Shown: positions 4,667-24,695 of the stretch, piece after piece
Layout of the letters: each line of letters opens with the position of its first letter
Numbering within the stretch: position 1 is the first letter of the stretch
Virus record (IMG/VR): IMGVR_UViG_3300022871_000073
Reading direction: 5' to 3' (one strand)
From: a virus
Length of the DNA stretch: 31,509 bases
Translations under genes and position numbers: made by a program
Notes under the pieces: model-generated
The model's input: only the letters and a program-made list of their open reading frames with translations
The model's database searches: none
Told to the model about the DNA's origin: nothing

Positions 4667-4672
4667 ATTTGT

Positions 4673-4746
4673 ACACCAGGAGAGAATCAAACTCTCGAAA
4701 AACAGGGCTTAAGCCTGTTGTGTATTTCATCGTCCACCACAGGTGC
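4673..4746 (-). tRNA. tRNA (anticodon UAA, short V-loop; Leu-like)
   Basis: T-arm GAGAG-TTTGATT-CTCTC; anticodon arm ACAGG-CTTAAGC-CCTGT. Paralog of the next tRNA. Confidence 0.45.
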
Positions 4747-4754
4747 ATAAAAAA

Positions 4755-4829
4755 GTACGCTTGATCGGAATCGAACCGACGAAAGGCACGGTCTAAACGT
4801 GTTATGTATTCCAACGTCCACCACAAGCG
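4755..4829 (-). tRNA. tRNA (anticodon UAG; Leu-like)
   Basis: T-arm GTCGG-TTCGATT-CCGAT, acceptor GCGCTTG/CAAGCGT, anticodon loop TTTAGAC. Confidence 0.45.
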
Positions 4830-4838
4830 CATGAATTA

Positions 4839-8059: not shown

Positions 8060-8065
8060 ATTTGG

Positions 8066-8137
8066 GGCAAAAAAAGAGGTTCGAACTCTCACCTAAAGAT
8101 TGGAAATCTCTCGTGCTACCATTAACACCATTTCTGC
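8066..8137 (-). tRNA. tRNA-Gly(UCC)
   Basis: T-arm GAGAG-TTCGAAC-CTCTT; anticodon arm AGAGA-TTTCCAA-TCTTT; D-loop AATGGTAG. Confidence 0.55.
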
Positions 8138-8143
8138 ATTTGG

Positions 8144-8216
8144 TTGTCCTACCGGGATTCGAACCCGAATCACAGCCTTCGCAGGGCCACATTCTATCCA
8201 ATTAAACTATAAGACA
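8144..8216 (-). tRNA. tRNA-Arg(GCG)?
   Basis: T-arm TCGGG-TTCGAAT-CCCGG; acceptor TGTCTTA/TAGGACA; anticodon loop CTGCGAA. Confidence 0.4.
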
Positions 8217-8305: not shown

Positions 8306-8310
8306 ATTTG

Positions 8311-8381
8311 AGCTCACATAGGGATTCGAACCCCAATATCTCGGGTTGCGACCGAGTACCTTACCAATCGGACATGTGAGC
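8311..8381 (-). tRNA. tRNA-Cys(GCA)
   Basis: Acceptor GCTCACA/TGTGAGC; anticodon arm CTCGG-TCGCAAC-CCGAG. Confidence 0.55.
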
Positions 8382-18947: not shown

Positions 18948-19373
18948 TTATTTTTTGATTATATCGTGTCCCATCTTAACAACTCCACTTATAAGTATTG
19001 GTTCATGAACTTTAACCCAATTTTTGATGTTATTACTTTCGGCTCCACCCTTACCGGTTTTACGATCGAACGCAAGAGTAACATGTGGTATTTTATTTTT
19101 TGATTTGATACCGTTGGTTAAAAATTTTACTTTTGCAGCAATGGCATCATCGTTAAATCCGAATTCCTTAACTTCCATTTTTACTGTTTTCCCAACATAC
19201 GTTAATTGCTCATTGCTTGGGATGCCAAAAACTAAAGTAACATGCTCACCACGGATCACCCAATCATCGTATTGGGTTTTATTTGCATAAAACTCATCAA
19301 GTAAATCCAATAATTTTATTTGACTTACATCATCAAGTATTATTGCAATTAATGTATTGGATATTTTTTTCAT
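18948..19373 (-). CDS. 2H phosphoesterase superfamily protein (LigT / Acb1-like), about 141 aa
   Basis: Two H-x-T-x motifs (GEHVTLVFG and IPHVTLAFD). Likely start at MKKISNTL, coupled to the upstream stop via TAATG. Confidence 0.6.
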   Translation of the reverse strand: MKKISNTLIAIILDDVSQIKLLDLLDEFYANKTQYDDWVIRGEHVTLVFGIPSNEQLTYVGKTVKMEVKEFGFNDDAIAAKVKFLTNGIKSKNKIPHVTLAFDRKTGKGGAESNNIKNWVKVHEPILISGVVKMGHDIIKK

Positions 19374-19564
19374 TAGTTTAAGTAAATATTTTCTTCCTTT
19401 GCTTTGAAATCCAAAGAAACTCCGTAACTGAACCAAAAGTTCCAAAGTTGATTGAAATTTAAATCGTTCGCAGCTTTTAATTGTTCAATTATTAAATCAG
19501 CAATAATTTGATAAACTTTTGTTTTTGCTTTTTTTACAATCTGATCGGTTTCTTTTAAATTCAT
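19373..19564 (-). CDS. hypothetical protein (63 aa)
   Basis: ORF track; promoter motif about 100 nt upstream. Confidence 0.45.
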   Translation of the reverse strand: MNLKETDQIVKKAKTKVYQIIADLIIEQLKAANDLNFNQLWNFWFSYGVSLDFKAKEENIYLN

Positions 19565-22666: not shown

Positions 22667-22682
22667 ATTACAAAATTAATTG

Positions 22683-22755
<73 letters not shown>

Positions 22756-24037: not shown

Positions 24038-24044
24038 TATAAGT

Positions 24045-24116
24045 AACGCTATCTGGTTTCGAACCAGAACCTTTGCTTCATGAGGGCAACGGATTAACCT
24101 ATTTTCCCATAGCGCT
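24045..24116 (-). tRNA. tRNA with CAU-type anticodon loop (Met or Ile2), irregular anticodon stem
   Basis: T-arm TCTGG-TTCGAAA-CCAGA; acceptor AGCGCTA/TAGCGTT; loop region CCTCATGAA. Confidence 0.4.
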
Positions 24117-24226
24117 GTAAAGGAACTTCCTCATAGTTAAATAGTCGAGGAGTCGAACCCCAATACCATCTATTTGCTTGAATATGATATCTCGAGATAT
24201 TCTAGCCTGTGTATCGATTGTTCCAG

Positions 24227-24301
24227 TGGTCCCGGGTGAACTCGAATCACCGACCTTTGCGTTATGAGCGCACTGCTACTACCGAACTGAGCTACAGGAC
24301 C
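24227..24301 (-). tRNA. tRNA-Met/Ile2(CAU)
   Basis: GGTCCTGTAGCTCAGTTCGGTAGAGC... ; anticodon loop CTCATAA; T-arm GGTGA-TTCGAGT-TCACC. Confidence 0.55.
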
Positions 24302-24540: not shown

Positions 24541-24607
24541 ATTGTACAGGTTGATATTATTTACATTAAAAGTGTAGTTGTTTTGTTTGCTGTAATCAAC
24601 CTTTTTG

Positions 24608-24695
24608 AGGCAGGAGAGGGAGTCGAACCCCCGGAACCCTCCGAAGAGGCCTCTTGGTTATGAGCCAAGCGAGCTGGCCACTGCTCTACCCTGCA
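24608..24695 (-). tRNA. class II (long V-arm) tRNA with CAU anticodon
   Basis: D-arm GAGC-AGTGGCCA-GCTC; anticodon arm CTTGG-CTCATAA-CCAAG; V-arm CCTC-TTCG-GAGG; T-arm GGGGG-TTCGACT-CCCTC. Confidence 0.45.

Follow-up and report, generated by a model that had tools for sequence, protein, structure and literature searches.

Phage tRNAs that combine class I anticodons with long variable arms and probably keep the identity of their own anticodon

By textbook rule, an extended variable arm (V-arm), the mark of class II tRNAs, is found in bacteria on the tRNAs for Leu, Ser, Tyr and selenocysteine (Sec) only. A first-pass annotation of the viral DNA studied here (IMG/VR record IMGVR_UViG_3300022871_000073, 31,509 nucleotides (nt), the whole of which we call the window) relied on this restriction, which holds as a rule but has published exceptions in the allo-tRNAs and in selC* tRNACys (PMC5389517). 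Mukai et al. (2017, PMC5389517) place some allo-tRNAs or (8/4) tRNAs, so named from their acceptor and T stems, in tRNA clusters of phages and in polycistrons made up of irregular tRNAs, and report (8/4) forms of tRNA-Ser and tRNA-His in phages. In addition, translation can still use tRNAs whose V-arm hairpin was added or exchanged, and synthetic His tRNAs with a long V-arm insert His in E. coli reporters, more so when HisRS is overexpressed (Mukai 2020, PMC7590224). The known exceptions, nev-tRNAs and allo-tRNAs, are bodies of Leu or Ser identity; the phage arrays described here breach the class rule the other way and on a large scale. We analyzed four tRNA genes of the window, with the class I anticodons CAU, GUU (Asn), UGU (Thr) and GUG (His), whose variable regions are long. 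With a probability of about 0.75, judged from their sequences and those of their homologues, these would be functional phage tRNAs that decode the codons of their own anticodon and are charged with the matching amino acid by host synthetases. For phage tRNAs with ordinary acceptor and T stems of 7 and 5 base pairs (bp) (7/5) that combine a V-arm with class I identity, we found no description in the searchable literature, which is not proof of absence; the nearest mention is that of polycistrons of irregular 7/5 and 8/4 tRNAs (PMC5389517).

ARAGORN predicted 36 tRNA genes in the window, all on the minus strand and in three clusters, and 34 of the 36 reach the gathering score (29 bits) of the Rfam model RF00005. 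The four long genes (Table 1) all exceed this score with full-length matches to the model, and ARAGORN concurs. Three of them, those with CAU, GUU and UGU, had been pointed out in the first-pass annotation and proved to be real by both programs, with the limits of the GUU and UGU genes now as given in Table 1; the anticodon arm CTTGG-CTCATAA-CCAAG and the hairpin CCTC-TTCG-GAGG that it quoted for the CAU gene are exact on the minus strand, together with the regular D-arm and the 20-nt variable region. It had missed the long His gene, the Ser-type gene and the pair of short Leu genes also listed in Table 1. Rfam alignments showed normal acceptor, D, anticodon and T arms with 7/5 stems, with inserts of about 11-18 nt sitting exactly at the position of the variable region, and the anticodon loops have the canonical length of 7 nt, U33 and, at position 37, a purine. 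An intron or insertion was considered and rejected, since the extra nucleotides lie in the variable region and not in the anticodon loop and the hairpin occupies a conserved position; likewise, an 8/4 allo-tRNA reading was rejected on the stem lengths of 7/5.

Table 1. Positions of the tRNA genes, tRNA parts and open reading frames (ORFs) of the window that are discussed in the text
Feature	Position	Strand	Details
Long CAU tRNA	24608..24695	-	88 nt to discriminator; ARAGORN Met(CAU) 24607-24695, 89 nt; Rfam 45.3 bits
Variable region of long CAU tRNA	24633..24652	-	AGGCCTCTTCGGAGGGTTCC = AGG-CCTC-UUCG-GAGG-GUUCC, 20 nt
V hairpin of long CAU tRNA	24638-24649		CCTC-UUCG-GAGG
Anticodon of long CAU tRNA	24660..24662	-	CAU, inside loop CUCAUAA
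Long tRNA-Asn(GUU)	25691..25778	-	88 nt; ARAGORN; Rfam 40.3 bits
Long tRNA-Thr(UGU)	9785..9868	-	84 nt; ARAGORN; Rfam 51.1 bits
Long tRNA-His(GUG)	9399..9482, or ..9483 with encoded G-1	-	84 nt without G-1; ARAGORN; Rfam
Short initiator tRNA(CAU)	22682..22755	-	U1xU72, G2:C71, C3:G70, A73, three G:C pairs beside anticodon loop
Short CAU tRNA, likely tRNAIle2 (lysidine)	24226..24301	-	G1:C72, C4:G69, C5:G68
Likely elongator Met tRNA	24043-24116
Irregular Ser-type tRNA-like gene	10142..10225	-	ARAGORN 'tRNA-???', 2-nt 'anticodon'; Rfam 30.8 bits
Class I-shaped tRNA-Leu(UAA)	4671-4746	-	76 nt; A73
Class I-shaped tRNA-Leu(UAG)	4755-4830	-	76 nt; A73
tRNA-Ser(GCU)	9241-9332	-	U73
tRNA-Phe(GAA), irregular	25547-25618	-	A1xA72 unpaired
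tRNA-Gly(UCC)	8063-8137	-	3' CCA encoded
tRNA-Arg(GCG)	8141-8216	-	3' CCA encoded
tRNA-Cys	8310-8381
NUMOD3 homing-endonuclease-like ORF	8361-9044	-
Vault-like ORF	14179-16593	-	804 aa
ORF with 2H match	18948-19445	-	165 aa

In the long CAU tRNA, the 7-bp acceptor stem begins with an unpaired U1xC72 and goes on with G2:C71, C3:G70, A4:U69 and G5:C68; the D-arm has A11:U24, the 5-bp anticodon stem has U29:A41, G30:C40 and G31:C39, and the T-stem has 5 bp. The discriminator is U73 and CCA is not encoded. The variable region of this tRNA forms a 4-bp stem capped by a C(UUCG)G tetraloop, and the minimum free energy fold of the whole tRNA is a cloverleaf with the V hairpin. The long Thr, Asn and His tRNAs have a class II-type D-arm (3-bp stem, 13:22 unpaired, enlarged D-loop), unlike the 4-bp D-stem GAGC/GCTC of the long CAU tRNA. 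In the long Asn tRNA, we found U1:A72, C2:G71, G73, a D-arm with a 3-bp stem and an 11-nt loop, and a 17-nt variable region, UGAGUUAAUACUCCAUC, made of 1 nt, 4 bp, a 4-nt loop and 4 nt. The long Thr tRNA has G1:C72, C2:G71, U73, a D-arm with the loop UAGCGGUCGAU and a 14-nt variable region, UGGAGAAAUCCCAC, with a 3-bp stem and 3 unpaired nt on its 3' side. In the long His tRNA, C73 stands opposite a G-1 encoded at 9483, directly 5' of the gene. The Thr and Asn genes had been called a paralogue pair. They are indeed reciprocal best matches among the 36 tRNAs, with 74% identity against 59 +/- 4% for all pairs, and have the D-loop and the T-arm in common, but not the acceptor, anticodon or V stems; within the window, the long Thr, Asn and His tRNAs are each other's closest relatives.

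The design recurs in other phages. A search pattern running from the CAU anticodon arm to the T-arm, GGCTCATAACC-N18-35-GGTTCGANTCC, in which a class I tRNA would give a spacing of 11 nt, matched more than 120 IMG/VR contigs, a lower bound; among the matches listed, ARAGORN called 123 long CAU tRNAs, of which 101 are unique; their variable regions measure 12-23 nt. In 596 Gb of bacterial and archaeal genomes, the same pattern turned up at just 40 places, mostly in contigs of metagenome-assembled genomes (MAGs) with 15-30 tRNAs per 8 kb, suggesting mobile arrays or mis-binned phages; several further matches are archaeal genes, intron-containing in appearance. With just 40 cellular places, we conclude that host initiators are not long and that length is a trait of phages and mobile elements. 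Among long CAU tRNAs, the largest subfamily is crAss-like. In the cultured Bacteroides phage crAss001, the gene t23 (87-88 nt, annotated as tRNA-Met) has C1xA72, G2:C71, C3:G70 and A73, and none of the other tRNA genes fetched from its neighborhood is an initiator-type CAU; the long CAU copy of Kehishuvirus 'tikkala' is annotated as tRNA-fMet. A homologue of the long Asn tRNA is present in the cultured Cellulophaga phage phi4:1. Frequencies by isotype were obtained from 117 phage loci chosen solely by the CAU pattern, that is, by one long tRNA each: among their 705 tRNAs with class I anticodons other than CAU, 74 (10.5%) are at least 80 nt long, with long shares of 28% for Asn, 27% for Cys, 18% for Ile, 17% for His, 13% for Thr, 13% for Gln and 0/35 for Val. 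Members of the long-tRNA families come from crAss-like, huge and Cellulophaga phages. In the phage collection, BLAST with the long Thr tRNA gave no match, and with the long CAU tRNA the match was limited to the 5' half of ordinary phage initiators; the cultured phages so matched, PegLeg, Caulobacter RB23 and phi4:1, have Met tRNAs of normal length.

Two side observations concern long tRNAs elsewhere. Some of those in other phage loci have 6-nt anticodon loops. At 2600-2643 of locus L171, from an Algoriphagus sp. MAG (JAJTDZ010000036.1), lies a lone long initiator-type tRNA with C1xU72, three G:C pairs and the hairpin CCGCCGCGGCGG in its variable region; there is no tRNA array within the fetched 8 kb, and the gene, in a Bacteroidota genome, may be chromosomal or the remnant of a prophage.

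Covariation supports the helices of the long tRNAs, including the V-arm. For the long CAU tRNA, a narrower pattern run on viral and metagenome contigs gave its subfamily, aligned as 10 sequences (9 homologues), in which 93.2% of the cells are paired, a value that drops to about 50% when the partners are slid. The subfamily scores 0.287 for covariation; shuffles score 0.107, and none of 500 reached 0.287. In the V region of this subfamily, the flanks AGG and RTTYC are kept and the stem is rewritten (CCTC/GAGG, CAGA/TCTG, CGGT/ACCG, GTCT/AGAC, CG/CG), with changes on both sides in all four pairs. The long Thr(UGU) family (13 sequences) has 95.9% of cells paired, a covariation score of 0.80 against 0.19 for shuffles and double changes in 20 of 23 pairs; G1:C72 and C2:G71 are invariant in 13/13, and pairs 3-7 vary. 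Several V-arms are shifted against the others in the MAFFT alignment of the Thr family, so that the 69% paired obtained from it for the V helix is an underestimate; folding each sequence separately, which was used instead, places hairpins of differing sequence at the same position. Between the long Asn tRNA and its phi4:1 homologue, compensatory changes were found in the acceptor stem (C4:G69 to U4:A69), the anticodon stem (G31:C39 to A31:U39) and the V-stem (GAGU/ACUC to GAGA/UCUC). As the sequence changes freely while the pairing is kept, the extra arm is selected as a helix.

We then considered which amino acid each long tRNA is likely to accept. The CAU anticodon is sufficient for MetRS; for the transformylase, the unpaired 1:72 is the major determinant, and G2:C71, C3:G70, G4:C69, A73 and purine11:pyrimidine24 are minor initiator determinants (PMC9976931). 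Among the latter, the long CAU tRNA has G2:C71, C3:G70 and A11:U24; with its anticodon, the unpaired 1:72, G2:C71 and C3:G70, it would be methionylated, formylated and used at starts. In its subfamily, 1:72 is unpaired in 9/10 sequences, A11:U24 and A73 are each present in 9/10, and G2:C71 and C3:G70 are invariant. The 101 unique long CAU tRNAs among the matches listed include 57 with an unpaired 1:72 and 19 with a weak U1:A72; 88 have G2:C71 and 85 have A73. Ile and Met had been among the options named in the first-pass annotation, and initiator-type Met is probably the part that holds. In E. coli, C4:G69 and C5:G68 are the TilS determinants of tRNAIle2. Both pairs occur in a separate short CAU gene of the window, which on these determinants we take to be tRNAIle2, and neither is present in the long CAU tRNA (A4:U69, G5:C68), so that an Ile2 role for the latter is unnecessary.

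In E. coli, the Thr determinants are G1:C72, C2:G71 and, in the anticodon, G35 and U36. All of these are present in the long Thr tRNA, as they are in the short Thr(CGU) tRNA of the window, and the long phage Thr tRNAs have U73 in 14/14 and C2:G71 in 14/14. Published work assigns Thr identity to pairs of the acceptor stem and to the anticodon, and Asn identity to the anticodon GUU and G73 (PMC9976931). The long Asn tRNA has GUU and G73, and G73 is found in 12/15 long and 44/46 short phage Asn tRNAs. The long His tRNA carries the His set of G-1, C73 and GUG, and so do two other phage loci (L059 and L113). Elsewhere in phages, U73 is present in 6/7 long Cys tRNAs, A73 in long Ile and Lys tRNAs and G73 in long Asp tRNAs; the discriminator of the long tRNAs tracks that of short tRNAs with the same anticodon, not that of Ser (G) or Leu and Tyr (A).

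In phages, every Leu tRNA and every long Tyr tRNA has A73. None of the long tRNAs of the window does (U73 in CAU and Thr, G73 in Asn, C73 in His), which makes Leu and Tyr unlikely. The discriminator check proposed in the first-pass annotation, A73 for Leu and G73 plus V-arm for Ser, finds no A73 in these four genes, whereas G73 plus V-arm does occur in the long Asn tRNA. The Ser pattern further includes G1:C72, G2:C71 and a V-arm of a set size and orientation: phage tRNA-Ser has G2:C71 in 38/39, where the long Thr and Asn tRNAs have C2:G71, and 1:72 of the long CAU tRNA is unpaired. The geometry of the V-arm is also unlike that of Ser, with 3-4 bp and 3-4 unpaired 3' nt in long tRNAs with class I anticodons against about 6 bp and 1 unpaired 3' nt in phage tRNA-Ser (n=48); phage Leu tRNAs have about 3 bp and 2 unpaired nt, Tyr tRNAs about 3 bp and 3. 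In phages at large, long tRNAs with class I anticodons pair 13:22 in 27% of cases and short ones in 70%. The annotation had offered two readings, and the one favored by these data is that of genuine, anticodon-matching tRNAs with an unusual architecture, given cognate identity elements at the acceptor end that are conserved in diverged phage homologues.

In our reading of functional, correctly charged tRNAs, the long tRNAs keep the acceptor-end and anticodon identity elements of their own amino acid and have a short V-arm hairpin added, with a class II-type D-arm as a further addition in Thr, Asn and His. The long CAU tRNA belongs to a family of V-armed initiator-type tRNA(CAU) that is widespread in phages and mobile tRNA arrays. 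The synthetases involved would evidently tolerate the extra arm, and it is plausible that the ribosome would too, as it also handles Leu, Ser and Tyr tRNAs with arms of this kind. As to the purpose of the arm, our best guess is that it may stabilize the tRNA core or may make phage tRNAs look different from host ones to nucleases or modification enzymes that act on tRNA. The Tyr-like geometry, together with Asn, His, Cys and Asp anticodons that are one change away from the Tyr GUA, suggests that Tyr-type genes may have been remolded. A more far-reaching idea, which we put forward tentatively and consider rather unlikely, is that phages of several lineages (crAss-like, huge and Cellulophaga phages) possess a private set of V-arm-tagged tRNAs including an initiator of their own, in which the arm would be a functional self-mark against host defenses that cleave or inactivate tRNAs or against the phage's own attack on host tRNAs, or a handle for phage factors, amounting to a partly insulated layer of translation; such a set would go back to class I identity elements that were grafted on a Tyr-like class II core.

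Several observations weigh against functional tRNAs with their own identity. In folding energy, the long CAU tRNA does not stand out from shuffles (z = +0.19), so that the evidence beyond chance comes from the covariance-model score and the covariation in homologues. The 14-nt variable region of the long His tRNA has no predicted stem, which makes it class II by length (10 nt or more) only. The long CAU tRNA deviates from its family in having U73 instead of A73 and C72 instead of U72, and it has A4:U69 where initiators have G4:C69. Bacterial initiators have three consecutive G:C pairs (29:41, 30:40 and 31:39) beside the anticodon loop. The long CAU tRNA and its subfamily have two only, with U29:A41, and all three are present in 31/101 of the long CAU tRNAs among the matches listed. 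The phage also keeps a canonical short initiator, so that the long one could be redundant. ThrRS, AsnRS and HisRS are class II synthetases and approach the tRNA from the side of the variable loop. Their tolerance of the arm is for this reason not self-evident. In GenBank, the phi4:1 homologue of the long Asn tRNA is entered as 'tRNA-OTHER / tRNA-Pseudo', a pseudogene flag given by tRNAscan-based annotation. Finally, SerRS accepts G73 or U73 together with a long arm (PMC5389517) and the phage's own tRNA-Ser(GCU) has U73, so that, judged by the discriminator alone, the long Asn and Thr tRNAs may be partly serylated.

Among the rival explanations, the best placed, though in our view unlikely, is an elongator role for the long CAU tRNA, which would be genuine and accept Met or, after lysidine formation, Ile without serving as an initiator. 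U73, A4:U69, the two out of three G:C pairs, the canonical short initiator of the window and the absence of A11:U24 from crAss-type members would all fit it; set against this are the frequency of an unpaired 1:72 in the subfamily and in the wider set, the invariant G2:C71 and C3:G70, the fMet assignment by the annotators of Kehishuvirus and the separate candidates for elongator Met and Ile2 in the window (Table 1). A role outside translation, in which the transcribed and folded RNAs would be decoys or sponges for host nucleases or toxins that target tRNAs, or regulators, is improbable. Some irregular tRNAs of bacterial arrays are charged yet unused in translation (PMC5389517), and host defenses are reported to cut tRNA variable loops and anticodon loops. 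The long copies also look partly redundant, as ordinary short initiator Met, Asn and Thr(CGU) tRNAs are encoded in the window too. However, according to ARAGORN the long Thr tRNA is the sole UGU tRNA and the long His tRNA the sole His tRNA of the window, so these two are not redundant, and in crAss001 the long form is the sole initiator-type tRNA among the genes fetched; the canonical anticodon loops likewise argue for decoding, and the conserved synthetase identity elements would be superfluous for a pure decoy.

We give still less credit to misincorporation, in which Ser-, Leu- or Tyr-type bodies with a shifted anticodon would place the wrong residue at Met or Ile, Thr, Asn and His codons, as the first-pass annotation had suggested for swapped-anticodon Ser or Leu bodies; the nev-tRNAs of nematodes and the allo-tRNAs of bacteria may behave in this way. 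Its appeal lies in SerRS and LeuRS ignoring the anticodon (PMC9976931), in the class II-type D-arms of the Thr, Asn and His long forms, whose D-loop xAGCGGUCGAx is as in Ser and Tyr tRNAs, and in anticodons that are one mutation from Tyr GUA (Asn GUU, His GUG, Cys GCA) or from Ser UGA (Thr UGU). G73, as in the long Asn tRNA, is also the Ser discriminator, and U73 is tolerated by some SerRS (PMC5389517) and occurs in the phage's own tRNA-Ser. Yet A73, needed for Leu and Tyr, is missing from the long tRNAs of the window, while nev-tRNAs, by contrast, all keep it (PMC3333845); C2:G71 in Thr and Asn, in place of the G2:C71 of Ser, and a V-arm geometry that is not that of Ser speak against Ser; and the cognate sets of Thr, His, Asn and the initiator are conserved across diverged phages. 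The swapped-anticodon claim is accordingly not upheld. Hardly credible, finally, are decaying pseudogenes or prediction artifacts with junk insertions in a fast-evolving array. The pseudogene flag in phi4:1, Rfam scores of the long tRNAs below those of the window's short tRNAs, and irregular members of the array (the Ser-type gene and one tRNA-Phe, Table 1) could be read in this way, but the helices are intact, with compensatory changes across diverged phages that include the V-arm, so that covariation largely refutes it; the identical sequence is present in several independent metagenomes, and the families extend over crAss-like, huge and Cellulophaga phages.

The window also contains the inverse breach of the class rule. 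Two class I-shaped tRNA-Leu genes adjoin two normal long Leu tRNAs. In the other phage loci, short forms make up 18/100 Leu tRNAs and keep the Leu-type D-arm, and short Leu tRNAs are annotated in crAss001, Kehishuvirus, Cellulophaga phage phi4:1 and mycobacteriophage PegLeg as well. The irregular Ser-type gene has a Ser-type D-arm, a V-arm of Ser geometry with 1 nt, 5 bp and 1 nt, A1xG72 and an anticodon arm of just 14 nt (CGUCU-GGGA-AGGCG); since the window has no Ser tRNA reading UCN, it may be a damaged or unconventional tRNA-Ser. The tRNA-Ser(GCU) of the window has U73 and not the usual G73, and the same is true of phi4:1 tRNA-Ser(GCU). One of three Phe(GAA) genes has, besides its unpaired first pair, an irregular anticodon arm and a 2-nt deletion in the Rfam alignment. 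A 3' CCA is encoded solely by the Gly(UCC) and Arg(GCG) genes; the other 34 tRNAs lack it, and in most of them the discriminator is followed by C. A NUMOD3 homing-endonuclease-like ORF lies in a tRNA cluster and overlaps tRNA-Cys by about 20 nt. The arrangement is the same in crAss001, where the HNH protein Gp8 overlaps tRNA-Gly just upstream of the long tRNA-Met, and in PegLeg.

The window has about 32% G+C and genes packed on one strand, and its ORFs include a T4 gp30.3-family protein, a virion- or tail-related protein, a phage-type phosphoesterase and a LysM/CHAP protein; its TonB_C and DUF4842 proteins are typical of Bacteroidota. We conclude that the window is part of a large phage genome, whose host is probably a member of the Bacteroidota. 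Identical sequence with the same long tRNAs was found in several ENA, JGI and Logan metagenomes. In the phage collection, megablast found no close DNA relative of the window, only tRNA-Met fragments, and a search with two ORFs that flank the tRNAs gave no related loci. The 804-aa ORF has major-vault-protein shoulder, Vault_3 and Band_7 domains and more than 6000 metagenome homologues, many of them on contigs of 100-500 kb that resemble huge phages; its relatives with about 55% identity (contigs of 165-374 kb) have no tRNAs nearby. The 165-aa ORF weakly matches the tRNA ligase cyclic phosphodiesterase (2H) domain, with 20.3 bits where the cut-off is 23, and an RNA-repair enzyme in a tRNA-rich phage is a possible reading of it.

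In conclusion, the long tRNAs look like a little-noticed phage tRNA design and not like a miscoding device. About one in ten of the class I-anticodon tRNAs in these phage arrays would be V-armed with its own identity, the initiator of crAss001 included, and some phage Leu tRNAs have lost the arm. For annotation, this matters as long tRNA genes are deposited in GenBank as generic Met or 'pseudo'. With regard to phage-host conflict, any advantage of the arm could be tested in crAss001 with Bacteroides and in phi4:1 with Cellulophaga. If they are charged as we infer, the long Met(i), Thr, Asn, His and Cys tRNAs of phages could serve tRNA engineering as natural 7/5 scaffolds that tolerate a V-arm hairpin.

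Among described systems, the nev-tRNAs (2012, PMC3333845) are alike in combining a class II shape and 7/5 stems with class I anticodons (Gly CCC, Ile UAU); unlike the phage tRNAs, all 115 of them keep the Leu A73, and they are leucylated in vitro (PMC3333845). They are eukaryotic, weakly expressed Leu-type bodies with shifted anticodons, whereas the phage tRNAs appear to have the identity of their own anticodon. The allo-tRNAs have acceptor and T stems of 8/4 or 9/3, a long D-stem with a tetraloop, and Ser identity with G73 or U73 (PMC5389517); the window tRNAs differ in their 7/5 stems, ordinary D-loops of 8-11 nt and, in Thr and Asn, C2:G71. The (8/4) tRNA-His of phages lacks G-1 (PMC5389517), while the long His tRNA has G-1 and C73. 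With Tyr tRNAs, the long tRNAs have in common a V-arm of 1 unpaired nt, 3-4 bp and about 3 unpaired 3' nt, a 3-bp D-stem and an AGCGG-type D-loop, and the Asn and His anticodons (GUN) differ from the Tyr GUA at position 36 only; Tyr identity, however, needs A73, in place of which the long Asn tRNA has G73 and the long His tRNA C73 with G-1. The tRNAs of Mukai 2020 are artificial and built on an allo-tRNA chassis, whereas those of the phages are natural and 7/5 (PMC7590224). The long CAU tRNA shares with the canonical fMet tRNA the CUCAUAA loop, the unpaired 1:72, G2:C71, C3:G70, A11:U24 and G:C pairs at the loop, as well as, in most of its family, A73; the canonical form is a class I tRNA with a 5-nt variable loop and three G:C pairs, while the phage family has a variable region of 12-23 nt.

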